DNA of 64,000 bases, taken from assembly GCA_039815375.1 (NCBI GenBank), contig JBCBZJ010000019.1:1-64000 (forward strand). Reading direction: 5' to 3'. This document shows, in pieces, positions 5,915-62,277 of the stretch. The notes beneath the pieces were generated by a model. It was not told the DNA's origin. It worked only from the letters and a program-made list of their open reading frames with translations, and ran no database searches. Numbering within the stretch: the stretch's first letter is position 1; every line of letters begins with the position of its first letter. Made by a program: the position numbers and the translations under genes. Source of the stretch: Verrucomicrobiota bacterium. Lineage in GTDB: Bacteria; Verrucomicrobiota; Verrucomicrobiia; Opitutales; Coraliomargaritaceae.

Positions 5915-6676
5915 TCAAGGAGCCGAATAATAGAAACCCGATCTAAGCCGCCTTCGTATCCTCCATAGAGCTGCGATCATCGGCCAGGCATCATGCATCG
6001 GCCGAACTTTACCTCCTTCAATCTCTTTCCACGGAACTGCCTTTTCAGCACATGAGATATCCAAACACCTTAATGCGAGAAGTAACTCTACATCAAAGAC
6101 ATAGTTTCTCTCCTTAAGTTTGCTTGCCACACTTCTGTATGCCCTGCCAAGTATGATTTTTGCTCCGCACTGCGTGTCTTGATAGTTCAGGCCGGTCAGT
6201 AGGCGGACGAGCAGCCTAAAGAGACGAAAGGACAAGGATCGTCCTAAGTCGCGTTTCAGCGGTGCTTCTTCCGAGTTCTTTCGTATACCGACATAACCAC
6301 TACAATCTTCGGATAATGCAGTTTGTATGAGCCGAATCATCGAATCGGCTGAAATAGCACCATCCGCATCAACAAAAGAAAGCCACTTAGCGTCTGGAAA
6401 AAGATCCCAGGCAGAATAGATCGCCCCACCCTTGCGAGAGCGCGATTCAAGTCGGACTAAATCTACATTCGAGTAGAGAGTGCCGAAAGAATTGACGAGA
6501 TCCGATATCTTCTCTGCTTCATCGGGACTAGAGCCATCATCTGCGACGACCCACCGTATCGGAAGTTCAGATTCTTTTAATTTTGCTGCTAGTTGCGGTC
6601 CGAAGATTGAAAGGCGGTTAGAATCATTCCACACCGGGCTAACTAGAATAATCTCTCGTGTATCATTCGGCAACAT
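5915..6676 (-). CDS. GT2 glycosyltransferase, polyprenyl/dolichyl-phosphate sugar synthase-like
   Basis: Motifs PVWND, DDGS, KGGAI, FVDADG, DTQCGAK, FDVELL. Confidence 0.9.
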   Translation of the reverse strand: MLPNDTREIILVSPVWNDSNRLSIFGPQLAAKLKESELPIRWVVADDGSSPDEAEKISDLVNSFGTLYSNVDLVRLESRSRKGGAIYSAWDLFPDAKWLSFVDADGAISADSMIRLIQTALSEDCSGYVGIRKNSEEAPLKRDLGRSLSFRLFRLLVRLLTGLNYQDTQCGAKIILGRAYRSVASKLKERNYVFDVELLLALRCLDISCAEKAVPWKEIEGGKVRPMHDAWPMIAALWRIRRRLRSGFYYSAP

Positions 6677-6762
6677 TAAGACGCTAGTTAATCGGAATCA
6701 TAGATCAATTGCAAAGGATGATTGCAGTGCTTGTGGAAGTGATTTCCACTTTAACCACTACG

Positions 6763-8286
6763 ATGCCGAAGCAATACCTCATATGGCTCAGTTGGATCGC
6801 CATTTTGATTACTGCCCTGTGGCTACGCATAGGTGGCCTTGAAGATCGCCCTATCCACGCGGATGAGGCAACTGGGGCTCATATACTTGGAAAGCGCTTG
6901 AACGGAGAAGCATATAACTACAACCCGAAGCACTTTCATGGTCCTGTGCTCAGTATGGGCTCTCTAGCCATTTCTATGTTTCAAAATGAAAGAAGCTGGG
7001 AAGAATTAACGTTGGTAGGCCTACGAACAAGCACAGTAATCGCAGGGATTCTTCTTGTGCTGGTTCCTTTGCTTTGGACAAAGCTGATCGACCCTATTGC
7101 AGCAATCGTTGCAGGTGCCTTTCTAGCAACTTCGCCTCTACTGGTCTACTACAGCAGAATGTATATTCACGAGGTTTGGCTTACTTTGTTTGGTATGATT
7201 GCTTGTTGGGCAATCTATCGAATTTCACTAAAGCCAACCCTGACAAAAGGAGCTGTCGCAGGTCTGTTTATTGGCCTCATGTTTGCGACCAAGGCAACTA
7301 CAGCTATCTCGATTATTGCTTGGGTTGTGGCTTTCAGCACAGTCATCCTGATAGATCGATCAGTGAAGTCTCCTAACGCTGGTTCCTGGCTTGTTTTAGA
7401 TTTTATTAAGCCCATTTTGGTATGCACCTGCGTCGCATTGGCGACTACATGGCTCTTAGTCTCCAATTTTTTCCAGAACCCGAGTGCAATCCTAGACACG
7501 GTCAAAACCTACTTCGTCTATGAGACTACGAACGGGCATGAAAAACCTGCCAGCTATTTCATACGTCTCTTGATTTGGCCGAAGCATTCACTTGGAACTT
7601 GGTGGTCGGAAGCTATGGTGCTTGTTTTGGCTATTGTCGCTACGCTTCTCTCCATAAGGAAACGCAATAAACAAAAATTGGCTCTCTTTCTGGTGATTTC
7701 CACCGTGCTACACTTCCTGATCTATTCTCTAATTGGCTACAAAACGCCATGGCTCAGCTTGCTTCCCTGGGCGCATCTTTGTCTCTTAGCAGGCTTTTTC
7801 GGCACCGAAATTTTCCAGGCTCGTAACATAGTTCTCCGACTGAGCCTTATCGTTTTGATCTCAGCTGCGCTTGGCTATCAAATACGACAGAGTCTTGCCG
7901 CAACGCGGGCTTTTTCCAACGACATTCGCAATCCATACGCTTACGTCCCGACCACAAAGGATGTTGGGAAACTAGCAAAATGGTTCTCTGAGTTGAGTGA
8001 GGTAGATGAAAAAATCGATCTTTCACCGATAGCCGTTGTTGGCCAGGGGTATTGGCCCCTACCCTGGTATTTACGCGATTTCGAAGTCGGCTACTGGACG
8101 AACTCAAACGTCGTGGATATTACTTTTCCGGTCGTTATCGCGATGTCCGATCATATCAAGAGTTGTGATAAGACACTGGGAGAAAGTCATGTTGCCCTGC
8201 CTAGGTCATTGCGAAATAATGTCCCCATAACAGTCTATTTACGGAATGACATCTGGAGTAAATGGATGAAGTCTCCAGGATCATGA
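6763..8286 (+). CDS. GT-C fold multi-TM glycosyltransferase-like protein (TIGR03663/Agl23/PMT-like)
   Basis: LRIGGL..RPIHADEA, YNPKHFHGP, SPLLVYYSRMYIHE and YKTPW motifs, about 12 TM helices, and a C-terminal soluble domain with WPLPWYLR. I prefer ATG 6763 over the upstream TTG at 6709. Confidence 0.8.
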   Translation: MPKQYLIWLSWIAILITALWLRIGGLEDRPIHADEATGAHILGKRLNGEAYNYNPKHFHGPVLSMGSLAISMFQNERSWEELTLVGLRTSTVIAGILLVLVPLLWTKLIDPIAAIVAGAFLATSPLLVYYSRMYIHEVWLTLFGMIACWAIYRISLKPTLTKGAVAGLFIGLMFATKATTAISIIAWVVAFSTVILIDRSVKSPNAGSWLVLDFIKPILVCTCVALATTWLLVSNFFQNPSAILDTVKTYFVYETTNGHEKPASYFIRLLIWPKHSLGTWWSEAMVLVLAIVATLLSIRKRNKQKLALFLVISTVLHFLIYSLIGYKTPWLSLLPWAHLCLLAGFFGTEIFQARNIVLRLSLIVLISAALGYQIRQSLAATRAFSNDIRNPYAYVPTTKDVGKLAKWFSELSEVDEKIDLSPIAVVGQGYWPLPWYLRDFEVGYWTNSNVVDITFPVVIAMSDHIKSCDKTLGESHVALPRSLRNNVPITVYLRNDIWSKWMKSPGS

Positions 8287-9122
8287 GTGAGCCCTACAAA
8301 TTTGATCATGATGCGATGAAAACCACTTACACACTAAGGCTGGTAAGTGATCAAAAGCTGTATGCGCAAAATCTCGCATATGATTTATTTGGTAAAATTG
8401 ATGAGTTGGAAGCCAAGCTAAGCCGTTACGCACACGGCAGTGACATCTGGCAAATCAATCATATGAAAGCAGGCGATCAATTATTCATCAGCGAGGAGAC
8501 CAATGAGTGCCTTAGACTCGCCTTCGAAGCCCACCAAATCACCAACGGATTGTTTGACATCACTTTGGGGGCAGAGATCGAACACCAAAAGAATGCAAAC
8601 AGTGGGAAGATAAACGCTGGACAGGGTCAACTCATGCTGGATCCTGAAAAACCTCTGATCTATTGCGAAGTGCCTGGACGTGAACTCGATCTTGGCGGCA
8701 TCGGCAAAGGTTATACACTCGACTATCTTCTTCGCCAAATCGACGGCAGTGAGGGTATTGAAGGGGGGCTTCTCTCCGCAGGCACAAGCACTCAGCTCGC
8801 ATTTGGTGAGCAGCCATGGGATATCACTTTGAACGGAGAAGAAAACTCCGTTAAAGTTACGATCCAGAATGAAGCACTAAGTGCCTCCGGGACAAGTATA
8901 CAAGGTGAGCACATCATTTCTCCAACCGGCGAATCCCGGCAAAACAATTACAGGCGAGTTTGGATTGTGCATGATAAAGCTGCAATCGCTGACGCACTTT
9001 CGACCGCGGCGCTGCTACTACCAGAGGCAGAAAACGCTGAACTTCTTGCACAAACACGTGCAGTTTATAGCGAAGACAGTAGGAACAAAGTGATTTCTCA
9101 GCTAGTCAGACCGTTGTCGTAG
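8283..9122 (+). CDS. apbE: FAD:protein FMN transferase (ApbE family)
   Basis: Motifs GLFDIT, LDLGGIGKGY, SASG, HII, ADALSTA; ATGA start/stop overlap with the upstream gene. Confidence 0.9.
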   Translation: MSEPYKFDHDAMKTTYTLRLVSDQKLYAQNLAYDLFGKIDELEAKLSRYAHGSDIWQINHMKAGDQLFISEETNECLRLAFEAHQITNGLFDITLGAEIEHQKNANSGKINAGQGQLMLDPEKPLIYCEVPGRELDLGGIGKGYTLDYLLRQIDGSEGIEGGLLSAGTSTQLAFGEQPWDITLNGEENSVKVTIQNEALSASGTSIQGEHIISPTGESRQNNYRRVWIVHDKAAIADALSTAALLLPEAENAELLAQTRAVYSEDSRNKVISQLVRPLS

Positions 9123-14557: not shown

Positions 14558-17500
14558 ATGCAGACAAAGATATATTTGATCAGCAATCCTCAACGGAATA
14601 CACATGGCTTTGCACTTGTAGTTGCACTCAGCCTGATGGCTTTCATTCTACTGCTTTTAATCAGTTTAACGACGATTGTTCAAGTCGAGACGAAAACCTC
14701 TACGCTTAGCCAGTCTCAGCTCAAAGCCGAACTGAATTCGCTCTTAAGCCTCAACATCGCAATGGGAGAACTCCAGCGCGCAATGGGGCCTGATCAACGT
14801 ATTTCCGCTACGGCAGAAATCCTTACTACCAACGATTCGGATATTCCTAGAGGTAAGCGTAACATCGTAGGCGCTTGGTCAAGTGCTCCGGACGGAGGTG
14901 ACTTCGACGATCCGGCCTACACGAATGGCGAGCTCGTCGCATGGCTTGGTTCGGATGCCAGAGATGCAAATGGGATACCGGTCCCAAACTATAACCAGAT
15001 CGACTCACCGGCACCGGACGACCTCAACGCAGCAGTTCTCGTTGGTCCGGGTTCACTAGCAGACAACAATGGAATCGTCATTGATGATAAGGATCAAGTT
15101 GTCATCGATTTGACCAACTCCAACATAGTTGAAGGTAATTCCACTACTGGACGCTATGGCTGGTGGGTCGGAGATGAAGGAGTCAAGGCGAGGATCAATC
15201 TCGAAAAACCAACTCCCGGCTTATCAGACCAGCAAAAGTACCGCGGACTTCTGGAAGCAGGAAGCTTCACAGCTTCAAACCCAAGCGCTTTGAAAGACAG
15301 CAACAATTCGCAATCACTCAGCACAATAGATTTTGACCAAAACGCGGGCAGGATCGGCACGCTGGGGGACTTGGAATTACTGCCTGGCGGCTCGAATGAC
15401 TTATCAGACGAGTTTTTTCATCATTTAACAATCTACTCTTCCGGCGTGATCTCCAACGTTCGAGACGGCGGCTTGAAGAAAGACCTTTCGCTCGCGTTTG
15501 AAATGGATGAAAGCCTCTTTGACGCATCTGATTTTGCAGAAGGAAACGATGATAGTCTTTCGCCCTGGCCAAATGCCAGTTTCGAGGTGGCTCCGGTCTT
15601 CTCGTTTACTTCCGCAGAAGCTCCACGCGCTGAGTCTGCACCAACGCTATCATTTACCGGTTCAGCAAGAGGCCCAGTTTGGAATTTGTTACGTGACTAC
15701 TATCGGATCTATCAAGAGATCGATGACCCGCTTAATGATCCAACCTTTACTTCTCAGACGATGGCACCGAGCTTGAACCACCGCAACAGTAAGTATAATT
15801 TCTATGACAGTGATTTTTCGCCTACAGACAATCTTGACCAAGGCAATAACCATCCTGCGCTGAAAATGTCCGGTGGGCGACTTAACGCAGGTAAAAACAT
15901 ACAACTTATTGAGAACAGCGGACCCTATCCTAACGGCCTAAGCAGGCCAGACGACATTGTCTTGAACTACGCTCCTTACTACGCAAGTGCCGCAGGTAAA
16001 CTTAATACCATGTTAATCGATGGACCGGCGGGAGATGCACTGCGCAGCGACGGAAGCATCATCCCGCTCATGGTCAGCGCTAATTACATGCCCATATTTC
16101 TCCGCTCCGTAATAGAATTAGGTATATTTTTTGAGCCGAGAACTGTTGCGCCCGGTCAAGGCTTTGACGGCTACGAAGGACCTGCTTATCAAGCACTTTT
16201 AGCTGCCCGCAGTATTCATGCACTGCATAACCCTTATAACGTAAAACTCGAGACGCCTGATATTTCCTACGAAGTCGTTGGCTTTTCAAGTCGATTGGCT
16301 CTCTACGATGCGAATACCGAAATGCATGCCATAGCTGCCGATCCAGTAACCAAAATCATAAACGACCCGAGTGATCCCAACAAAACAATTACTCTGGAAC
16401 ACTCCGAGAACCACTGGGATTCCCGCTTTAAAGGAAACAACACTGAGGACGACCGCCAAGGTGAAACCAGCAACTTTTCAGCTCGTGCTGCGATTGAAGG
16501 ACTTCAAGGCAGCAATGCGATAGATCCCGGAGAAATAAGAGCCTACAGCGGAGTAAATCTGAACTCCAACGAACGTTCTGTAGTATTACCCACCTTCACT
16601 CCCGACTGGAAAGGTCTTAATAACAATAACCTGAACAATAACACCGTTGGTAACCTCATCCGCGCAGGGCAGGACTACACTTTAATTGTCCGGAGCAATG
16701 GCGGGAAACGAGCTAATGCCATCGAAGATAACTTAACCAATGGTGGAGATGGTCCTACCGATCGTGTGAGCCGCTACATCTTCTCAAATGTTTCGGTCAA
16801 TCATTACGTTAATGATGATGGCAACCAGTCGTTCCAAAGCAGTGGTCAGATTGAAAATTGGGCACTCGCTGCAGGTATGAATACAAAAATCCTGGGGCCG
16901 GGTCCACTGTATGAGCGAGCTATTCAACTTGATCAGCAAAGCACCAGTGAATTCCGCTACCCAATGAATGATTTCAGTTTTTACGATCCTGCATCGCTTG
17001 AAGCTTATAAATACGGTGCTCGCTTCGACCTCACAGACGTTTCACTTCAATCTCTCACCGCGTCAAATATACTTCCGATTGTCTCTTATGATATTAAACT
17101 GAAGCCTACCGAGTATCTCGCTCCGGCTTATATCGACGACGCCTCAAAGGGGCATCGCTACCCAGTTTATACTATGACGAACCCTTTAGCCCCGGTTCGT
17201 GACAGTAAAGCTATCTTTCCTCCCAGTGTGCTTAAGGGGCGAGGTAGTCCAGGTTTTCCAAGCCTATCACCCGGATGGGACTTCAACATTGGAGTTGGGG
17301 TTTCGACAGGCGGTCTCGATTACACAAAATGGGGCCCGAGCGATGGTGCCTTGAATGCTAGCGGAAGCGGTATTGATAATGCGATCATGCTGGAACTTCC
17401 GACCACTCCCCCGCTTTCGATCGGGAAACTACAACATGCAAATATTACAGTTTATGACCACATGCCTGCACTCGCGATCGGAAATTCATTTGCGTCTCCT

Positions 17501-18712
17501 TATATCGCACGAGATCAAACCTACTCCATAAACAACAACCGGTATGGCCTAGACCGACTCTTCTACGATATTTCATATCTCATGAACGATACCCTCTGGG
17601 ACGGTTATTTCTTTTCATCCTACTCTCTGCCCTTTGAAGGGCCTCAATACAGTACGACCAGAGGAGTTCGTGGGAGTTTTGAAGATGCCTTTGTAAATAG
17701 TAATTCGCAACCGCTTCCCAATCCTCGCATGTCACTTCATCTTGCAGACGAAGAAGACGTTTCGGATGTCGCGACAAAGCTTTTTTCGGGAATTGATCCT
17801 TCTGAAAATAGCTATCAGCGTTCCAGTGAAAATCTCATGATTGATGGTGCGTTCAACATGAATTCGACTTCTGTCAGAGCATGGCAAGCAGTCCTTGCCG
17901 GTGCGCAGCAAAGTAACGAGATTGTCTACCTTAACCCAACCCAAGGCCAAAGCGCTCAGACGGCCTCAGTTCAAGATGGTGAAACACCTTTTCTTCGTTT
18001 CTCACAACCAGGCAAGGATGAGCATGTTAGCAATACACTCGATGATGAAAATGCTTGGGGCGGCTTCCGTGCTCTAGATGAAAACCAAATCGAGGAGCTT
18101 GCGAATAACATCGTTGCTGAAATAAAAGCTCGATCGACCTTTGAAGGACGGCCGTTTCTATCTATATCCGAGTTCGTTAATCGTAAATTGATCAGCCCCT
18201 CGGATCCAAATGGAGCCGGCTTTGGTCTGGCAGGTGTCTTGCAAGCTGCGATCAACAAAAGTAGCACGATCAACAGCCAGTTCGAAGATGAGTTTAATGA
18301 TATCACACAGTCGGTGCTCAGTGATACAGGTTATGGTGGATTCCCATTCCCTGAGAATATGCTTCGCGAAGACGGCACTGAAGCAACAGCTGCGTCTACT
18401 TCGCCGACTGTTCTCCTGCAAGCCGACATCCTACAAGCTGTTGGTTCATTTCTGTCCGCACGAAGTGATTCGTTCCGGATACGCTCATACGGCGAAACAC
18501 TAAACCCGGTTACGGGTGAAGTTGAAGGTAAAGCTTGGTGTGAAGCTATCATCCAGCGCCTCCCAGAGCCCACCGTTCCTCGCAGTGGAACATCACCTGA
18601 TGAGGAAGCCTACTGGGCGACTACGATTGGTGATAGCAGTAATCAGCCAATGCCTTTCGGCAGGAGGTTTAAGCTTGTATCCATTCGTTGGCTTAGCGAA
18701 GAAGAAGTCTAG
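14558..18712 (+). CDS. Giant GspK/PilX-like prepilin-type protein (related to Verru_Chthon cassette protein A), copy 1
   Basis: Class III signal-like G|FALVVALSLMAFILLLL lacking E5; LQRAMGPDQR, WWVGDEGVKARIN, GAFNMNSTS, PFLSISEFVNR, RSDSFRIRSYG and C-terminal GRRFKLVSIRWL. I prefer ATG 14558. Confidence 0.8.
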   Translation: MQTKIYLISNPQRNTHGFALVVALSLMAFILLLLISLTTIVQVETKTSTLSQSQLKAELNSLLSLNIAMGELQRAMGPDQRISATAEILTTNDSDIPRGKRNIVGAWSSAPDGGDFDDPAYTNGELVAWLGSDARDANGIPVPNYNQIDSPAPDDLNAAVLVGPGSLADNNGIVIDDKDQVVIDLTNSNIVEGNSTTGRYGWWVGDEGVKARINLEKPTPGLSDQQKYRGLLEAGSFTASNPSALKDSNNSQSLSTIDFDQNAGRIGTLGDLELLPGGSNDLSDEFFHHLTIYSSGVISNVRDGGLKKDLSLAFEMDESLFDASDFAEGNDDSLSPWPNASFEVAPVFSFTSAEAPRAESAPTLSFTGSARGPVWNLLRDYYRIYQEIDDPLNDPTFTSQTMAPSLNHRNSKYNFYDSDFSPTDNLDQGNNHPALKMSGGRLNAGKNIQLIENSGPYPNGLSRPDDIVLNYAPYYASAAGKLNTMLIDGPAGDALRSDGSIIPLMVSANYMPIFLRSVIELGIFFEPRTVAPGQGFDGYEGPAYQALLAARSIHALHNPYNVKLETPDISYEVVGFSSRLALYDANTEMHAIAADPVTKIINDPSDPNKTITLEHSENHWDSRFKGNNTEDDRQGETSNFSARAAIEGLQGSNAIDPGEIRAYSGVNLNSNERSVVLPTFTPDWKGLNNNNLNNNTVGNLIRAGQDYTLIVRSNGGKRANAIEDNLTNGGDGPTDRVSRYIFSNVSVNHYVNDDGNQSFQSSGQIENWALAAGMNTKILGPGPLYERAIQLDQQSTSEFRYPMNDFSFYDPASLEAYKYGARFDLTDVSLQSLTASNILPIVSYDIKLKPTEYLAPAYIDDASKGHRYPVYTMTNPLAPVRDSKAIFPPSVLKGRGSPGFPSLSPGWDFNIGVGVSTGGLDYTKWGPSDGALNASGSGIDNAIMLELPTTPPLSIGKLQHANITVYDHMPALAIGNSFASPYIARDQTYSINNNRYGLDRLFYDISYLMNDTLWDGYFFSSYSLPFEGPQYSTTRGVRGSFEDAFVNSNSQPLPNPRMSLHLADEEDVSDVATKLFSGIDPSENSYQRSSENLMIDGAFNMNSTSVRAWQAVLAGAQQSNEIVYLNPTQGQSAQTASVQDGETPFLRFSQPGKDEHVSNTLDDENAWGGFRALDENQIEELANNIVAEIKARSTFEGRPFLSISEFVNRKLISPSDPNGAGFGLAGVLQAAINKSSTINSQFEDEFNDITQSVLSDTGYGGFPFPENMLREDGTEATAASTSPTVLLQADILQAVGSFLSARSDSFRIRSYGETLNPVTGEVEGKAWCEAIIQRLPEPTVPRSGTSPDEEAYWATTIGDSSNQPMPFGRRFKLVSIRWLSEEEV

Positions 18713-18722
18713 CATAGAACCA

Positions 18723-19448
18723 ATGAGATTTCGACATATCGCTTTATTTACAATTTTCCTAGGCATTTTTTCGTTAGCTGAGGCGCAGGAGAATGGATCT
18801 GAGAACGTAAACGTAACATGGTCTGCAATCTCACTCTCCAGAAATATTTCAGGACTGAAGTATGTAAGTGGTAACGAAGTTCGTAAGCTTGACGTTTTCA
18901 GAGGAGCACGCACAAAAAAAGTCACTTACAGAGGATCTGAAGTCATTTACTTTTTTCGGCAACAAGGCTCAGGAAATGATCCCGATGACGCTGAAAATAG
19001 AAAAATAGTCGGTGCCGTAACTCTGCCAAACACGAGTGGTAACTTCCTTTTCTTGTTCAGTAAAAGTCCCAAAGCAGATTACACTTACGACATTACCGCA
19101 ATTCCTGACGATCTGGCTACTTTCAAACCTGGAATGTATCGTTTTATTAATTTAGCACCGTTCGATATTGCGATACAGCTGGGTGATCAGCGTAAGCTGA
19201 TCAAACACATGAATTACACTGATATCAGTGCGAAAGCTGAGCACAATTCCTACCAACAGACTGTTATGCTTAGCCTCACCAAGCAGGGTGCGAAACCTTT
19301 TCGTAGCTACGAAGGGAACTTAAAGTATTTGGAAGACCAGCGCATTATTTATATCATAAGTCCTCGTAAAGGTGGCCGCCCAGGTCGCATTGCTTTAACA
19401 GCGATTCCAGAAAGAATAGTTCCGGAGACATCCAACGACGCGGGCTAG
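18723..19448 (+). CDS. Secreted beta-rich partner protein of the GspK/PilX-like gene, copy 1 (function unknown)
   Basis: ATG 10 bp after the upstream stop; Sec signal ending AEA; shares motifs with the protein at 47332..48174. Confidence 0.75.
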   Translation: MRFRHIALFTIFLGIFSLAEAQENGSENVNVTWSAISLSRNISGLKYVSGNEVRKLDVFRGARTKKVTYRGSEVIYFFRQQGSGNDPDDAENRKIVGAVTLPNTSGNFLFLFSKSPKADYTYDITAIPDDLATFKPGMYRFINLAPFDIAIQLGDQRKLIKHMNYTDISAKAEHNSYQQTVMLSLTKQGAKPFRSYEGNLKYLEDQRIIYIISPRKGGRPGRIALTAIPERIVPETSNDAG

Positions 19449-47331: not shown

Positions 47332-48174
47332 CTACTCACGTCTACGGCGAAGAGCAGCCGTCTGCAGGAAACCGCTACGCTGACCACTTCCGGACTGGAA
47401 ATAGCTGGATCCACCACGAACCACGACGAAGTTAATCTGTTCTTCTTCTCGAACCGTAATCACGTTACGTTCCTGAAACTTCCACCTGTCGTCTTTAAAG
47501 AAGGCCAGTTCATAAATCATGACTTTATCATTCTTTGGTTTCGCGATACTACTCTGGCCGGTTTTGAGTATAACCGGCTGGCCCTCTCGATCAAAACGGA
47601 GGGTAATATCATAGGGACTGAGATTATGTACCCGCATATGACCGTAAGGCAATTTGCTCGGATCATCGTCAAAGACAAGCGTGCGGAACGTGCCACCGGA
47701 ATCAGGATACATCAAAACTGTAGCCACGTTGGAGTTGGTCGGCAACGTCGCCAACGCGACCAGCTCGGGGTTATTCGTCTCTTCCCTTCTCGCCTGAATA
47801 TAGGGGGGGACTGGGCCTTTTGCGGCCGCTGGAGCTAACTGCTCCTCGGCTCGCGGCTCATCCTTCGGCGGTTCCTCACCTTCGAAATACTCAGCTTCAT
47901 CGACAAAATCATAATCCTCAAACTCTATCCTCTTCCTCTTTTTGACTTCTCCTTGAGAGATTTCCATGAGCTGCGGACCACTATAGGATATCGCTTGTGA
48001 ATACTGGAAAGCACGCGCAGTGTTTTTCCCAGCACCAGTGCCGAGCTTCAGTGCCGAAATTTCTTCTGCCATAGAAACCAGATAGACCCGCATGGAGACA
48101 TTTGCTTCCTGAGCTAAAAGCCCACAGCTACCAAGGCAAAGTACGAACGAAAAAGCAGTGAAGGTCTTCATCAT
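47332..48174 (-). CDS. Secreted partner protein of the GspK/PilX-like gene, copy 2 (function unknown)
   Basis: Signal peptide ending LLA; ISYSGP, LATLP, DDDPSKLPYG.MRVHNLSPY match the copy-1 partner; carries an acidic/Pro insertion. Confidence 0.75.
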   Translation of the reverse strand: MMKTFTAFSFVLCLGSCGLLAQEANVSMRVYLVSMAEEISALKLGTGAGKNTARAFQYSQAISYSGPQLMEISQGEVKKRKRIEFEDYDFVDEAEYFEGEEPPKDEPRAEEQLAPAAAKGPVPPYIQARREETNNPELVALATLPTNSNVATVLMYPDSGGTFRTLVFDDDPSKLPYGHMRVHNLSPYDITLRFDREGQPVILKTGQSSIAKPKNDKVMIYELAFFKDDRWKFQERNVITVREEEQINFVVVRGGSSYFQSGSGQRSGFLQTAALRRRRE

Positions 48175-48207
48175 AAAAAATCTGTTACTAGTGCTTTTAT
48201 TCAATAA

Positions 48208-51200
48208 TTAGATCTGATCCTCATTCAGCCAACGCAGGGAAACCACCCGGAAGCGGCGCCCCATGTCTCGATTGATATCACTCGTAAGCAAATCAAGTGG
48301 GGTTTCCGCATCATCCAGTGAATCAACATAGTCAGGATAGCGCTGAACGATCGCTTCGCACCAGGCCTTAGCCTCAACCTCATTTGAGATCGGATCACGA
48401 ACTTCGCCATAGGTTCGAATGCGGAAGGTGTCGGAACGGGCAGATAGGGACGGCCCGATTACCTGAAGCACGTCCGCTTGAGTCAGCCAGCCGGGAATAC
48501 CGGTCGACCGGTAGCCCAGCTCAGTCGGTTGGTCGAGAGTTCCGTCAGAAGAGTTGATGTCCGATTTATAGACAAGCAAGTTTTGTTCGGCTACAATGCT
48601 AGCCATTGATTTAGCATTTCTGTCGTTATGCTGAACACCACTATCTCCGGTGCCAGCCCAAGGCCAGAAGTCATCGTTTTCTCCTCCTGGATTGGGCACT
48701 TTGCCTATATTATTACTCTTATCCACTACTACGGGATTTGCATCCGATGCCAGAATATACCTTTCGCTAGTACTACCGCTATTTATGCGAACCACCTTCA
48801 CACGGTCCTCTGTCGGTATTATATCCTCGAATGCATTATCTCCACTACCGCTAAAGTCGTAATTGATGTTGATTCCGCTTTTATCGATGGCGTATTGAAG
48901 CGGACCGGAACGGCTTTGTGCATTATGGCTGTATGCATCCACTCCATCTTCTGTCTCATTATAAAGGATCAGACTACGGTTTATAAAATGGGATAAGGAG
49001 ACAAAGGGACCGCGAATCCGAACCTGCTTGACAATCTCCTCAGCCAGATTGTCTAACTCCACTTCGGTAAGGCGTCGATAGCCAGAGAAAGAATCCTCAC
49101 CAGTGCCTGAAGCCGGAGTCACCGAAGGGTTTGGTTGACGTGTACTTCTGGGGAAGAAAGCTCCCTCAGGCTCGTCGCTGCCTTCGGCGGGGTGGCTTAA
49201 ATGCTGTGTTCCGGCCAACAAAGCCTTCCAGGCTTCCTTGCTGGTCGAGTTCACATTAAAGGCACCGTTGACCATGAATTCGGCTGCCACCTTCTCGGGA
49301 GCTTCGCTGGGATCAGCACCAGCGACTCCTTTGATTTGCACCATGGAAGGGTTTCTCACCGTCTTGTCATCGCGATCATAGGTAGAGAAAAAATAACTGT
49401 CCCATAACGCAGTATTCAGCAAGTGGGACTGGTCACGGTAGAAATGATAGTTGTTGGTCTTTATATCGTTTAGATCATTATTTGTTATCTGGAACCCGGG
49501 TTTGTGATAATCCCAGCGCAACTGAACATTGGTTCCACGCCTGACAAAGGGGCTGTGGTAAGAGTTGCCGACCGCGTAGCCCGCCTGGTGACCGGTCGAG
49601 CCCACGTTTCTTCGATTCCGGTTATCAGGCACATCATCTGGATAAGTTCTGATCAAATCACCGGAGAGGTCGGCGTGCTGAAGCTGCGCGAGCGAGACCA
49701 GCTCTCCGGGCACGTCAAACAATACCGTGTTGTAGGATCCGTTTCCATCGTTTCGTCCCCACGGTGCAATTGGATCGATCAGATTGCTGCTAAAGGCCGG
49801 GCCGGTTTCGTAACTAAATACGAAGCCTACAGGGTTATCGTCATCGTTTGCATTTTTGAAAGCATCGGTCAGGCCGAGTGCACCTTCCGAGGCAAGGGTT
49901 TGATGAACGTAAGGCGGAGGATTCAGTGATGTGATGGCATCAATGAACACGTCACCTTGCAGATTAAAGTCCATAAAGGTGCGTACTGCTGAACTACTGG
50001 CCCCCATATGCGCCGGTTCGCCAAACCAATTATCCGCATAATTCATCCCGGGCTGGCTCATCTGGAAGCGGTAAAGGGACATGGCCAGAGGCACGTCATA
50101 GGTAGCCAGGGCGTATTGTGCCCATCTGCCGACCTTGCCTGTTAAATATGTCGTCTGTAGTAGATGATCCTGAATATTATTCCAGTCAAATTCCCCAAGA
50201 TAGAGGAGACGCTCACCAGACCCACCCCCCGCAAGTCCCAACTCAATCACACAGGTGCTTTCTCGGCCCTGCTCGCCAACCCGTGCAACCTTGGCCTTGT
50301 AGTCACGGATCGAATGATCCTGCATTTCCAGACAATTGCGAAAGTCCTGAATACTTGTGAAGTCTACCGGAGTCAGCTCCACAAAAAATTCATCGGTATT
50401 GTATTCACGGTAGTAGTTCTGGTTGATCGTGTAGCTTTTGGCTTGCCCCGGCTCCAAACGATCCGGTGCAATCGTAAACTTCGTATTGTGGAACAAGCTG
50501 GGCTGTGTGACACCACTATCATTTCTACTTGGCAGGAATGGGACCGTATCTGCCCCACTATCTCCAGGACTGTTCCAATCGCCCTCATCCATATCAAGGT
50601 TATCGACACTTTGACCTTCAGCATCATATTTAATGTTATTAGAAGGTCTGTGGATAGTAAACCACAATGATGTATTCATTCCGAGTTCATCATGCGTTTT
50701 ATCCATAGCTGTACCAATCACCTCCAATTCCAAATTTTCATCCCACACCAGCGGCACACTGAAAGGGTTGGCCAGGGTGATCGCGACCTTTGCGACCGGA
50801 TTGATCAGATAGGGCAAGGAACGCTCTTCAGGCTCTGAAGTAGTCAATCGGGACGGCTTAAGACTCGTCAATGGATCCAGAACCCGGGGATTGTCTTGCG
50901 TCACACAGCGCATCCCCAGCAGGAACCTCATATCCACGACCACAGGGCTAATCGATCGGGTCGTTTCCCCGTCACCTTCCTTGACCTTTAGCTCAAAAGA
51001 GTCGCCGTCCTCGGCGGCCTCCTGACTCAATTGATAAAATTCCTGCAGATTATCCCAAGTAGGCCCCTTGGGAATCGCAGCATTCCCGAAGACATCGTTC
51101 GCCACGATATTCGCGTTCGCATTCAGGCCATTGAGAAATTGACCCGAAAGATCGTCCAGCGAGTTCTTGGCCAGCGCGGTGCTGAGGTCAATACGCAGAC

Positions 51201-52341
51201 CGCCACGCAATGGATCGGCCAGCACCCCCATACTGTAAGGAGTGGCCGCATGAAAATTCTCCTGAATAACCGAAGGGGCATTACCAGTGCTGGCCAGTGC
51301 GGTGTTCAGCAGCTCCGCCTGTGGATAACTCGAAATGCGCTCAAGGGCAGAATTTTCCGAGGGCAGCGGGTAATAACTGACATCGCCTGCACCACGGAAA
51401 CCATCGACTGATTCCCAGCCTCGACGCGGCGAAGCTAGTGCTCCATAGCTTGCTTCATCACCCACGTTATAACCCGCAGCACCATTAATCAAAGATTTGA
51501 CGCTTTCGTCCCCAATCCACCAGGCAATACGTGCACCGTCTTCCTCAATCTCAACCAATGGGGCACTGATAAAATTACGTACATTGGCCTCACCGTTGAC
51601 CGTTTCATCCGCCGGTCCAAGCGAGCCTTCTCCAACCAGAACGACGGCCCGGTCACTGTCCAGAGGATTACCCTCCGTATCGAGTCCATAGATCGAGCTG
51701 ACATCCTGAGGCGTCGGCAAAGCTTGATTCTGATCATAGCTAACCAGCCATTTCACAGCGCGACTATCGCCCTCAACACTTGTTCCTGTCGGCGCTGGGG
51801 TATTCCTGTAAAAACTCCTCTCCAGAGCGGACTTAGAAAGCCCATCGTCCAACCTTGAGTCCTCCCAGACACCCGTCCAATAGCGGGTGCCGTGTTGAAC
51901 AGGCACCAACCCCTTCTGCTGAAGGTTCCCATCCGAATCCGATACAGCCGTATCATTGTTCTCTGGTTGAATACTCTCACTCAGGGCCTGACCATCAATG
52001 GTTCCGGCAATATCAGCGGTGGCGCTAACTCGTTGATCAGGACCCATTGAACGCTGCAGTTCCCCAAGTGCAATCTGCACACTCAACAAGGCATTTTGCT
52101 CTGCAGTGAAGCGTTTTTGTGCCGTTGCCGCCGATCCGGTTTCCACTTGTACCAGAGTTGTAATCGACACCAGTAACAGTAGCACAAAGGCCATTAAGGT
52201 CAGGCTAACATTCAATGCAAAGCCAGACCGGCTCGAACCGGCACGCAGATGCACCGGAGGAATGTCAGAACTCAGCAGATAGGGCCTGTAATCAAGCCTG
52301 CGATTCAGGTTCTGACTAGTGGAAAGACTGCCACACGTCAT
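48208..52341 (-). CDS. Giant GspK/PilX-like prepilin-type protein, copy 2
   Basis: G|FALNVSLTLMAFVLLLL, LQRSMGPDQR, WWIGDESVK, GAFNVNSTS, RGPFVSLSHFINR, RSDTFRIRTYG, GRRFRVVSLRWL. Confidence 0.8.
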   Translation of the reverse strand: MTCGSLSTSQNLNRRLDYRPYLLSSDIPPVHLRAGSSRSGFALNVSLTLMAFVLLLLVSITTLVQVETGSAATAQKRFTAEQNALLSVQIALGELQRSMGPDQRVSATADIAGTIDGQALSESIQPENNDTAVSDSDGNLQQKGLVPVQHGTRYWTGVWEDSRLDDGLSKSALERSFYRNTPAPTGTSVEGDSRAVKWLVSYDQNQALPTPQDVSSIYGLDTEGNPLDSDRAVVLVGEGSLGPADETVNGEANVRNFISAPLVEIEEDGARIAWWIGDESVKSLINGAAGYNVGDEASYGALASPRRGWESVDGFRGAGDVSYYPLPSENSALERISSYPQAELLNTALASTGNAPSVIQENFHAATPYSMGVLADPLRGGLRIDLSTALAKNSLDDLSGQFLNGLNANANIVANDVFGNAAIPKGPTWDNLQEFYQLSQEAAEDGDSFELKVKEGDGETTRSISPVVVDMRFLLGMRCVTQDNPRVLDPLTSLKPSRLTTSEPEERSLPYLINPVAKVAITLANPFSVPLVWDENLELEVIGTAMDKTHDELGMNTSLWFTIHRPSNNIKYDAEGQSVDNLDMDEGDWNSPGDSGADTVPFLPSRNDSGVTQPSLFHNTKFTIAPDRLEPGQAKSYTINQNYYREYNTDEFFVELTPVDFTSIQDFRNCLEMQDHSIRDYKAKVARVGEQGRESTCVIELGLAGGGSGERLLYLGEFDWNNIQDHLLQTTYLTGKVGRWAQYALATYDVPLAMSLYRFQMSQPGMNYADNWFGEPAHMGASSSAVRTFMDFNLQGDVFIDAITSLNPPPYVHQTLASEGALGLTDAFKNANDDDNPVGFVFSYETGPAFSSNLIDPIAPWGRNDGNGSYNTVLFDVPGELVSLAQLQHADLSGDLIRTYPDDVPDNRNRRNVGSTGHQAGYAVGNSYHSPFVRRGTNVQLRWDYHKPGFQITNNDLNDIKTNNYHFYRDQSHLLNTALWDSYFFSTYDRDDKTVRNPSMVQIKGVAGADPSEAPEKVAAEFMVNGAFNVNSTSKEAWKALLAGTQHLSHPAEGSDEPEGAFFPRSTRQPNPSVTPASGTGEDSFSGYRRLTEVELDNLAEEIVKQVRIRGPFVSLSHFINRSLILYNETEDGVDAYSHNAQSRSGPLQYAIDKSGININYDFSGSGDNAFEDIIPTEDRVKVVRINSGSTSERYILASDANPVVVDKSNNIGKVPNPGGENDDFWPWAGTGDSGVQHNDRNAKSMASIVAEQNLLVYKSDINSSDGTLDQPTELGYRSTGIPGWLTQADVLQVIGPSLSARSDTFRIRTYGEVRDPISNEVEAKAWCEAIVQRYPDYVDSLDDAETPLDLLTSDINRDMGRRFRVVSLRWLNEDQI

Positions 52342-59626: not shown

Positions 59627-61633
59627 ATGTACCCTAATATCAGTTGCGTAGACGCATGGCTGCTCCGTTTACTCTTCATGGTAGCCTGTATGTTCAATTG
59701 TAGCCATCTCCATGCATTTATTCCCATACAGGACGACTCGAACGCCATACGCTCAGTAATTGCACAAATTGAAGAACAGGTCGGCGTTTTACCCAGCAAG
59801 CAGCTGCAGATCAGCCCATGGACACTGGGTTATCGATCAAATCCGGATATCTCTGCCGATGAGCCCGTCACCTTGGACGTTCTCTTTGACGAAGCAGCCA
59901 TAATCGACCTAGTCGTCCTGTTCCCGGCGCTTTACACGCCGGACGGCTACGATCCTCATAGTTTTGGGTTTCCCGAACACTTTACCATAGAAGGTATTCT
60001 GGCTGACGAAACTAGAGTCCTACTTGTTGACTATAGCAAACAAAGATATCCTAAGCCTGGACTCGGACCTCAGTTATTCGATATCGACGTCGATACTCTC
60101 CTTGCCGGCCTTCGCATTACGTCGTTGCAACACCCGGCAACTCCAAAAGAATGGCGAAAAGGACAAAGAGTCGTTGCTTTTTCCGAACTGATGGCCTTTT
60201 CAGGGCCGCACAACGTCGCGCTGCAGAGAAAGGTCAAAGCATCCACGACACAGAAGTTCGAGTCGCGTTGGCACCACACTTATCTAATAGACGGCTTTTC
60301 CCACTATGCACCTGTTGATGGACAGATGATGGAACCGTATCGCAATGTTCTGCGACGGCTTGGAAACAAGACACTCATACTGGAAATGGACCTGGGCAAA
60401 CCAGTCATTGCCGACGAGCTTAGACTGTGGCCAGCCACTCCGGCAATTGAAGAAATGTATTCAAAAGACATCGGCACTGGCTTTCCTATGCAGGTGAAGG
60501 TGGAGGGTGCCATACGTGCGGATTTTTTCGACGCAGAAACCCTGTATCAATCGCAACGTAACACTCCGCTCCCTGCAGCCGGGCCCAAAATGCTTCGTTT
60601 GCGCAAAGACTTGTACAAACCACTGGAAAAAGTACGCTATCTACGCTTTCACTTGTCCGATGGCTACAGGCCAGGGAATATAGCCAGACCACAGATTGCC
60701 TTGACCGAGATCGAGGTATTTAGTCGTGGTCGCCTGCTCACAGGGGACCTCTTCTTCACCTACAATGTAGACAATAAGCTATACAAAACGAAGGGTCTGA
60801 CTGATGGAACGATCAGTTCTGGAAAAATTGTGCCCCTACGGCAGTGGATCGAGGATTATGAAAAGCGCACGCAACTACAAAAGCAGTTGTCTATGCTGAG
60901 AATCGCACTGGAGGACGCGATTCGCAGCGAACGCCAGCTATTCGCACGCTATATCTCCGTAGCTCTTGTTCTCATCATTCTTCTAGGGCTGACGATCATC
61001 ATAATCCGCTTGCTTGGCGAACGGCGCTGGAAACGTAAACGCGAGCAAATCGCAAGCGACCTACACGATGAGCTTGGGGGAAAGATGAGTAGCGTCGCCC
61101 ACTCTGCAGAGTTACTTCAATTAGGGCTCGGTCAAATAGATGAGGCAAATAAGGAACTACTTGATCATACCGTACGTACAGCAGTATCCGCTGCAGAAGA
61201 GACACGACGCATCGTTCGCCTGCTGGAAGAGCGCGCCTCTGCTACCAGTTTATCGCAGCAGATACGTGAAGCCGCCGATGAGGTGCTCGCTGAGATTCCG
61301 CATACCTGCACACTCGACGGACTCGAAAAAATCAAGCATCTGCAACCAACGCGCCAGTTGGATTTCATCCTCTTTATTCGCGAAGCACTCAATAATGCCT
61401 TGCGACATGCGGACGCGACTCATGTCCTCATTAAAACTCATACCTCCGGCCGACGTATCACGGTCGAAATTGAAGACGATGGTAAGGGTATCCCAAAGAA
61501 CAAAGTCCCACTCCGACACCTCGAAAAACGTGCACGACGAATCCGCGGAAAAATGTATGTACGCACAGCCAAAGAGGCCGGGACGAGAGTTTCCTTATCC
61601 CTGAAACTGAGACCAAGAGTAAGATTACCATGA
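59627..61633 (+). CDS. Sensor histidine kinase (HisKA_3/NarX-type) with periplasmic discoidin-like domains
   Basis: Signal-like N-terminus, two GFP..F/V...G discoidin-like repeats, a TM helix, IASDLHDELG H-box, EALNNALRHA N-box, IEDDGKG G1-box. Confidence 0.9.
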   Translation: MYPNISCVDAWLLRLLFMVACMFNCSHLHAFIPIQDDSNAIRSVIAQIEEQVGVLPSKQLQISPWTLGYRSNPDISADEPVTLDVLFDEAAIIDLVVLFPALYTPDGYDPHSFGFPEHFTIEGILADETRVLLVDYSKQRYPKPGLGPQLFDIDVDTLLAGLRITSLQHPATPKEWRKGQRVVAFSELMAFSGPHNVALQRKVKASTTQKFESRWHHTYLIDGFSHYAPVDGQMMEPYRNVLRRLGNKTLILEMDLGKPVIADELRLWPATPAIEEMYSKDIGTGFPMQVKVEGAIRADFFDAETLYQSQRNTPLPAAGPKMLRLRKDLYKPLEKVRYLRFHLSDGYRPGNIARPQIALTEIEVFSRGRLLTGDLFFTYNVDNKLYKTKGLTDGTISSGKIVPLRQWIEDYEKRTQLQKQLSMLRIALEDAIRSERQLFARYISVALVLIILLGLTIIIIRLLGERRWKRKREQIASDLHDELGGKMSSVAHSAELLQLGLGQIDEANKELLDHTVRTAVSAAEETRRIVRLLEERASATSLSQQIREAADEVLAEIPHTCTLDGLEKIKHLQPTRQLDFILFIREALNNALRHADATHVLIKTHTSGRRITVEIEDDGKGIPKNKVPLRHLEKRARRIRGKMYVRTAKEAGTRVSLSLKLRPRVRLP

Positions 61634-62277
61634 GCGATGACATTCGGATACTAATTGTTGAAGACAACAAACCTTATGCCACCACACTTCAGAAATTATT
61701 GGAGACAGGTGAAAGTATGTCTCACGTCGAGACTTTCTTCGATGGAGAGTCCTGCCTCGCTGCACTTGCAGATCAGGACTATCCAAAGGTAGACATCATC
61801 ATTCTCGATCTGCAACTACCGGGTATCGGCGGACTTGCGATAATACCCCGCCTGAAACAATTGATACCTAATCTGCGCATTCTCGTACTGACTCATAACG
61901 ACGACCACCTTACCACGCTGGAAGCAATACGACTCGGAGCAACCGGTTACGTGCTGAAAACAGCCTCCGTTCAGAGTGTATGGAATGCCATTCATGAGAT
62001 TCACGAAGGTGGATGTGTTATCGACCCAAGTCTCTCTAGCTTTGTCCTAAAAGCCCTCACTTCGACAACCCATCAGAAGCAGGAATTCCTCAGCGAACGT
62101 GAGCAGCAAGTGCTCGAACTACTTGCAGCCGGTTATGTAAAGAAGGAGATAGCAGATCAGTTGAGCATCAGTTATAGTTCTGTCGCAACGCATACCGAAC
62201 GAATCTTCTCAAAGTTAAAGGTCCGCAATATCGCGTCTGCTGTTGCCACAGCTATACGCAAGGGACTCATCGATTAG
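61630..62277 (+). CDS. NarL/FixJ/LuxR-family response regulator
   Basis: REC domain (VED, LDLQLP, GA.GYVLK) plus HTH LSEREQQVL...KEIADQL; ATGA overlap with the kinase. Confidence 0.95.
   Translation: MSDDIRILIVEDNKPYATTLQKLLETGESMSHVETFFDGESCLAALADQDYPKVDIIILDLQLPGIGGLAIIPRLKQLIPNLRILVLTHNDDHLTTLEAIRLGATGYVLKTASVQSVWNAIHEIHEGGCVIDPSLSSFVLKALTSTTHQKQEFLSEREQQVLELLAAGYVKKEIADQLSISYSSVATHTERIFSKLKVRNIASAVATAIRKGLID

Follow-up and report, generated by a model that had tools for sequence, protein, structure and literature searches.

The A-B cassette and its surroundings

The sequence analysed here, hereafter the window, is the 64,000-nucleotide stretch formed by positions 1 to 64,000 of contig JBCBZJ010000019.1 (assembly GCA_039815375.1), from a Verrucomicrobiota bacterium of the family Coraliomargaritaceae, and our subject is a cassette of two genes in it, A and B, which lie on the same strand with an intergenic gap of 10 bp (Table 1). 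In agreement with the first-pass annotation, which had described a pilin-like giant followed closely by a secreted partner, A encodes a protein of 1384 amino acids (aa) and B one of 241 aa, and we regard the pair as real, A being a so far undescribed kind of K-class tip pilin and B its dedicated partner. Our preferred reading, held tentatively and at a little short of an even chance, is that A assembles with B on one shared trio of H-, I- and J-like pilins, that such A-B units are exchangeable tips, and that the head of the cassette studied here (cassette 1) binds the local sulfated, fucose-containing glycan.

Table 1. Features of the two A-B cassettes, in window positions
Feature	Position	Strand	Basis
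Gene A, predicted giant K-class (GspK-fold) minor pilin, 1384 aa	14558..18712	+	Open reading frame (ATG at 14558, stop ending at 18712); 353 relatives; model of the relative P0030 matches GspK and XcpX
Predicted class III (prepilin) leader of A, residues 1-17, Gly last	14558..14608	+	Sequence; conserved G or A at -1
Conserved N-terminal part of A, ~residues 18-390: predicted long helix without Glu5, first beta-strands, first helical subdomain	14609..15727	+	Conservation profile; P0030 model
Variable central beta-sandwich region of A, ~residues 513-913, candidate specificity domain	16094..17296	+	Low conservation; strands of the P0030 model
Conserved C-terminal part of A, ~residues 945-1384: predicted second helical subdomain, last three strands completing the pilin sheet	17390..18709	+	Conservation; P0030 model
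Gene B, exported partner, 241 aa, two predicted tandem beta-sandwich domains	18723..19448	+	Model; follows A; ATG at 18723
Second A paralog (cassette 2), reading frame of 1377 aa, last in a GH95-GH2 gene run	48208..52341	-	phmmer E 9.5e-65; neighbours
B paralog of cassette 2, 3 bp downstream of its A	47332..48204	-	B-family profile E 1.4e-37; itself a row of that profile

Gene A has the sequence marks and the predicted fold of a K-class pilin

The N-terminus of A carries a Gly17|Phe18 junction, after which comes a hydrophobic stretch whose residue at +5 is Val, and the same pattern runs through the family: in an alignment of 120 relatives, position -1 is Gly in 101 and Ala in 3 (16 gaps; Gly or Ala in 104/104 ungapped rows), position +1 is Phe in 103 and Ser in 1 (16 gaps), and Glu occurs at +5 in none of the 112 rows ungapped there. 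This bears out the prepilin-like G|F start without Glu5 that had been read from the sequence, as do the DE..K..N and PF.S motifs named alongside it, which begin at residues 206 and 1199 and fall inside conserved blocks of a profile whose ends are conserved and whose residues 400-900 are variable. The centre had also been described as rich in Asn, Asp, Gly and aromatic residues; between residues 400 and 950 this is true of Asn (9.1 vs 3.9% in the long open reading frames, ORFs, of the genome), whereas Asp (7.1 vs 6.0%), Gly (8.9 vs 7.7%) and aromatics (9.3 vs 8.7%) lie near that background. Just 8 of 130 other A proteins reach at least 40 bits against this centre.

No Pfam match was obtained for A, and the family is without a Pfam or NCBIfam model. 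Against the GspK model NF037980, A scores 14.2 bits over residues 16-77 only (cut-off 130), and against TIGR02600, the model of the Verru_Chthon A proteins, 9.6 bits over the first 60 of 1296 positions (cut-off 332.3), the best of 27 A relatives reaching 30.3 bits over the same first 60 positions. Membership of A in the Verru_Chthon A family was rejected on these scores, on the like behaviour of the relatives and on the lack of a trio on the contig; a phylum-wide TIGR02600 search gave no match anywhere, controls included, and is hence uninformative. The A family itself is large, with 353 matches in one search, 3,886 clusters at 50% identity (E up to 1e-30), an estimated ~3,700 genome stretches and members in 130 of the 151 genomes of the order, and its best named matches come from Opitutales and other Verrucomicrobiota. 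An Atlas search with the A centre returned only unnamed Verrucomicrobiota clusters, PDB sequence searches with profiles of A and B gave nothing useful, and literature searches, with subscription papers and bioRxiv supplements outside their view, found no description of the family.

The fold was modelled on P0030, a 1186-aa relative that is 39% identical to A in the alignment, with an alignment of 64 rows as input (predicted local distance difference test, pLDDT, 89.4; predicted template modelling score 0.91). Among 48,161 chains, the model matched GspK best (3ci0_K, Z-score 11.7, root-mean-square deviation, rmsd, 3.1, 238 of 280 residues aligned), followed by XcpX (5vtm_X, Z 11.4, rmsd 3.3, 224 aligned) and, in third place, Thermus thermophilus ComZ (Z 6.4); Foldseek alone missed the GspK match. 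Since the GspK alignment runs from model residue 39 to residue 1186 of 1186, the GspK fold appears to be assembled from both ends of the chain, the rest being inserted. In A, helix 11-69 of P0030 maps to residues 18-76, and strands 432-726 map to the centre. The model supports a K-class pilin fold for A, one that takes up the variable centre as an insertion, and thereby the GspK-like identity proposed in the first pass.

Gene B belongs to one divergent family that travels with A

By eye, the first ~21 residues of B form a typical signal peptide, and the model of B (pLDDT 92.1) consists of two beta-sandwich domains, which most closely match the extracellular domain of PepT2 (Z 13.2, rmsd 3.4, 168 aligned) and the C-domain of AlgF (Z 8.7), a likeness of fold that by itself says nothing about function. 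Scanning 68 B proteins against Pfam and NCBIfam produced only single chance matches, and an Atlas search with B no usable named one. A direct search with B found a single relative, and the genes that follow A in the fetched loci make up one divergent family: B stands directly after A in 111 of the 125 loci with enough downstream DNA (52 of 66 outside the set from which the B profile was built), and six of the 14 loci without it come from reduced genomes. Pairing is complete in the source genome (3/3) and in genome G147 (27/27), so that the paralogous pairs expected by the first-pass annotation occur many times per genome. Of 100 pairs, 49 have the best hit of A and that of B in one and the same cassette, against about one expected, a co-divergence that shared inheritance alone can explain. 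A complex prediction of B with A residues 50-395 and 945-1384, the centre being omitted, scored 0.00, a value that we count neither for nor against a contact. Tandem pairs of B genes are found at L115, G140:C1:490990-492504 and G115:C2:277664-279113. The pair was also considered as a transporter and rejected as such, there being no Pfam match and neither model being a barrel.

A probable shared H-I-J trio for many A-B cassettes

At three loci (L094, L005 and L064) we found intact H-I-J-A-B operons, in which three prepilin genes, H-, I- and J-like, lie directly before A-B; in genomes G063, G085 and G098, 3-4 kb separates the J match from the B match, both on one strand, and G149 has J immediately next to A, arrangements that are consistent with the same operon. 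When seven pilins of these operons (full-length or N-terminal) were used as queries, the best match in the source genome was in every case a gene of contig C63 (E 3e-23 to 3e-4), and for six of them it was the trio member of the same class. The C63 cassette (G000:C63:102819-106391; L084:1820-5392) holds five pilins, two GspG-like ones, H, I and J, and no K gene. Its two major-like pilins score best against GspG, below the cut-off, and its trio gives sub-threshold matches to the Verru_Chthon models D, B and C, in matching order; three family members likewise have a trio that ends without a K. No machinery genes stand alongside the C63 pilins. C63 holds a trio lacking a K of its own, and this trio is the likely socket for the A-B cassettes.

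Other pilin sets of the source genome come with their own K: the type II secretion system (T2SS) on contig C3 has a G-H-I-J-K set that includes a 389-aa GspK-like gene, and two further sets (C3, C49) end, by eye, in a PilX-like gene. A prepilin peptidase is encoded on C14, and three secretin-like, five extension-type and five PilT-type ATPase-like and four platform-like ORFs were counted, so that the type IV filament machinery on which the first-pass annotation had made its proposal depend is present in the genome. Several type IV filament loci are spread over contigs C3, C11, C25, C33, C49, C50 and C12, with 22 N-methyl-type pilin ORFs in all; on C50, the start of a 1140-aa ORF (G000:C50:45906-49328) resembles, by eye, the RuvC motif of Cas9.

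The copy numbers of socket and tip differ sharply. Searched with a four-sequence profile in 80 genomes (at most 29 candidates scored per genome), the J-like gene is present in exactly one copy in 59 of the 59 genomes with a match, and it is single-copy in 3/3 further genomes, while A reaches 27 copies in G147, ~22 in G233 (one broken, one partial), 20 in G196, 17 in G118, six in G204 and three in the source genome. An H-X9-DG pilin model proved too short for copy counting. J was found in 58 of 69 genomes with A vs 1 of 11 without it, in a set of genomes that we chose and in which kin are not independent. A J gene in single copy per genome, set against up to 27 A genes, supports the idea of plug-in tips, and a one-socket, many-tips pattern is, as far as sequence can tell, well supported. 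In a FastTree phylogeny of the conserved core (530 columns from 63 sequences), the short A copies form one clade (support 0.92) that includes the operon-linked copy of L094 and the C11 copy of the source genome, the long copies appear as expansions, and the two cassettes of the window lie in different branches. The A repertoire differs within the genus. A separate clade is formed by the divergent A proteins of L086-L092 (1020-1120 aa), which sit without B amid housekeeping genes in reduced genomes of 0.8-1.0 Mb.

A pilin gene lies near only 7 of the 46 A loci of at least 18 kb, and the long paralogs might for this reason be pilin-derived periplasmic proteins outside any filament, their N-terminal helix serving only to tether them to the inner membrane while they form, with B, a complex for binding or scaffolding; a head of 150 kDa would, we infer, also be large for a secretin. 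However, the long paralogs conserve the G|F site and the pilin sheet in full, J and A co-occur, and the long copies of L005 and L064 lie in intact operons, and we consider a periplasmic anchor quite improbable.

Long A copies often lie beside glycan-degrading genes

The window is an island of sulfatase, fucosidase and GH2 genes, in keeping with the carbohydrate-active enzyme (CAZyme)-like neighbours noted in the first pass: the 33 neighbours scanned include seven sulfatases, three GH2 genes and one each of GH29, GH95, GH99-like, GH43-like, PL14 and beta-helix genes, and the surrounding enzymes are predicted to degrade a sulfated, fucose-containing glycan. Because the A-B unit diverges from the beta-helix gene on one side and converges with a gene for a 3-keto-disaccharide hydrolase on the other, cassette 1 is likely a transcription unit of its own; scans of its upstream region for promoters and repeats found no convincing operator (promoter-like sites 4 vs 1.8 in shuffles). 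On the contig that holds the window, we found neither an N-methyl-type pilin motif nor a gene for a secretin, an ATPase or a platform protein. The claim that the window holds no other part of a filament system stands for the machinery and for N-methyl pilins, but not for pilins altogether, the second A paralog being the sole other pilin-like gene on the contig. Cassette 2 (47332-52341, minus strand) adjoins a two-component pair at 59627-62277, and at 5918-9122 a GT2 gene, a PMT-like glycosyltransferase gene and an ApbE gene lie inside the degradation island.

In G118 we compared 84 of the 113 flanking ORFs of at least 280 aa, within 4.9 kb of 14 long copies, with 99 of 145 ORFs in 14 control regions that we placed at spaced positions, scoring degradative CAZyme or carbohydrate-binding module (CBM) families at E 1e-12; the three short copies of the genome were left out, which must be set against a glycan role. 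Such families were found in 29 of the 84 flanking vs 3 of the 99 control ORFs (Fisher p 2e-8, neighbouring ORFs not being independent) and in 11/14 long-copy loci vs 3/14 control regions (Fisher p 0.007), and LacI or GntR-type regulators at 5/14 long-copy loci. In G147, a sulfatase lies within 15 kb of 13 of the 27 A copies vs 6.0 expected (p 0.002, circular shift; the sulfatase list may be incomplete), and in G011 the count is three of three copies. In the source genome, 14% of which lies within 10 kb of a sulfatase, the nearest sulfatase is 3.1 kb from cassette 1 and 3.4 kb from cassette 2. Long A copies are enriched beside glycan-degrading genes, and a glycan role of A-B is plausible.

Several observations weigh against this role. 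The enrichment that the first-pass annotation had expected for the pairs in general does not extend to the short copies, which lie in housekeeping or transport contexts (that of source-genome contig C11 is 99 kb from a sulfatase); 14 of the 27 copies in G147 are more than 15 kb from any listed sulfatase, and in G140 one of four lies within 15 kb (one partial match omitted). Only one of the eight nearest relatives by centre shares the GH99-like and beta-helix neighbours of cassette 1, and some of these relatives are found amid housekeeping genes. The A centre showed no recognisable lectin or CBM fold, Ig/C2-like matches remaining at Z 4.8 or below in a search with the whole P0030 model; the fold is taken from a relative whose centre aligns weakly with that of the window's A, and aromatic residues are not enriched in the latter. 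The idea of interchangeable tips on a shared machine agrees with the single-copy J and the K-less trio, but in 23 reduced genomes (0.8-1.4 Mb) a divergent A persists for which no matching B was found, and J gave no match in any of the six of them in which it was sought. Enrichment beside CAZymes can, in addition, arise from co-residence in accessory islands.

We also considered that one centre type might track one enzyme set, and rejected this at one in eight.

If shared accessory islands account for the CAZyme adjacency, the A-B units could be a general adhesin repertoire, swappable tips that bind surfaces, particles or host cells. The divergent A of the reduced genomes, the housekeeping contexts of the short copies and the mixed ones of the close relatives of the window's A, the variation of the A set within the genus and the GC content of the window (0.46-0.51 vs 0.508 genome-wide) are in line with this, whereas the tight flanking of the G118 long copies by hydrolases and lyases and the regulators at five of those 14 loci are not, and we judge an adhesin repertoire improbable.

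Large exported proteins accompany some copies. PATR-repeat proteins stand beside 4 of the 14 long copies in G118 (L107, L110, L111, L118), and large autotransporter-like ORFs flank A-B, by eye, in L037 and L048. On contig C11 (G000:C11:208838-224553; L081:2839-18554), the short A-B copy comes first and is followed by genes for a 1404-aa exported protein, a 965-aa TPR protein, an ExbB-like and two ExbD-like proteins; a homolog of the 1404-aa protein is encoded downstream of a short copy in G147.

Relation to known filament and glycan-uptake systems

A shares with GspK/XcpX (PDB 3CI0, 5VTM; NF037980) the prepilin leader, the lack of Glu5, a sheet built from both chain ends and an inserted helical domain, and, in L094, L005 and L064, the order H-I-J-K; it differs in its length (~1,380 vs ~300 residues), its large variable insertion, its dedicated partner, its up to 27 paralogs per H-I-J set and its score far below the GspK cut-off. 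In the Verru_Chthon family, four genes are kept together. That cassette (TIGR02600 A, TIGR02598 B, TIGR02599 C, TIGR02596 D) is likewise verrucomicrobial and has a giant K-like subunit of similar length, whereas here K plus B multiply without the trio, which precedes A only in some genomes. In type IVa pili, the pilY1 gene lies directly after the K gene, and PilY1/PilC proteins are large, with a C-terminal beta-propeller. B is, in the same way, a non-pilin exported protein encoded directly after a K gene (for the role of PilY1, see PMC10191384), but it has 241 aa and two beta-sandwiches, on which grounds we rejected it as a PilY1, and the variable domain lies in the pilin A, not in the partner.

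Large tip minor pilins with an extra domain are also found in Streptococcus sanguinis PilC, Nanosynbacter PilX1 and PilX2 and T. thermophilus ComZ; of these, PilC (PMC9934059) and PilX1/PilX2 (bioRxiv 10.64898/2026.10.06.756255) are reported to bind glycans. In those reports, such pilins number one or two per genome and have no counterpart of B, in contrast to the dispersed A library, and the A centre shows no known lectin module. SusC/SusD resembles A-B as a two-gene pair repeated across glycan loci, but A-B has no TonB-dependent barrel or channel. Pilus-like genes (MUL2) have been linked to glycan use in Akkermansiaceae (PMC13174399), and MUL2 of Akkermansia (amuc_1099-1102), as described there, has no giant K-type pilin. 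Within the same order, a multi-copy pilin family different from A is reported in PMC13274419, a pseudopilin of 251 aa that has 67 homologs and is induced as part of an alginate cluster; in the Verruconatronum proteome table of that paper, whose late labels look shifted, no A-B pair was identified among the 89 rows labelled PILIN. Our literature searches found no type IV filament for which dozens of K subunits stand as alternatives.

Proposed mechanism and cargo selection as its main rival

We propose the following sequence of events for tips exchanged on a shared trio. The prepilin peptidase would cut the leader of A at G17|F18, as the motif and the presence of the enzyme suggest. A, lacking Glu5, would then be the first and outermost subunit, nucleating the filament with I and J; the K-class fold of a relative points to this, and the outermost position follows from known type IV filament biology, in which the tip complex is capped by a subunit lacking Glu5 (PMC10191384). 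Its I, J and H partners would be supplied in trans from C63, in line with homology and copy numbers. We consider this plug-in architecture, comprising these three steps, probable. Sec-exported B may in turn stabilise or complete the head of its own A through a putative contact, which their co-occurrence and co-divergence suggest, and the central beta-sandwich would provide specificity, extension and retraction of the filament bringing the polymer to the enzymes of the cell, a last step drawn from the neighbourhood and from analogues. Given the plug-in architecture, we lean slightly towards a glycan as the ligand. The most far-reaching version, in which one H-I-J socket serves up to ~27 giant K-B heads, each located in and co-regulated with a glycan-degradation locus and reeling in a specific polysaccharide as a functional substitute for SusC/D, we regard as doubtful.

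A serious rival, and the main one, explains the same neighbourhood: the interchangeable K-B tips could sit in the periplasm on a T2SS-like pseudopilus, recognise proteins encoded next to them, such as enzymes or large surface proteins, and push them through a secretin. Cargo selection of this kind likewise predicts CAZyme neighbours. The model of P0030 aligns over most of T2SS GspK, helical domain included, both major-like C63 pilins score best against GspG, if below the cut-off, the HIJK tip of the T2SS contacts secreted effectors (PMC10191384), the C11 copy heads a run with a large exported protein whose homolog recurs in G147, and PATR-repeat proteins flank long copies in G118. Known T2SSs, however, export many substrates through one K. 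The genome, moreover, encodes a distinct T2SS whose G-H-I-J-K set is complete in itself, cassette 1 is likely a transcription unit apart from its neighbours, and a hypervariable domain of 400 residues suits a ligand-binding head. On balance, we rate cargo selection as somewhat unlikely.

Significance for the Verrucomicrobiota

Verrucomicrobiota degrade and take up fucoidan and other resistant glycans, and the mechanisms by which they acquire these substrates are understudied (PMC13174399). Exchangeable A-B tips on a shared trio, if true, would mean that a single J gene serves all tips and that one cassette serves one substrate or cargo. Even if the tips select proteins for export, our literature searches showed no earlier case of one filament with so many K subunits to choose from, and the variable centres of the A family may hold many new binding domains.

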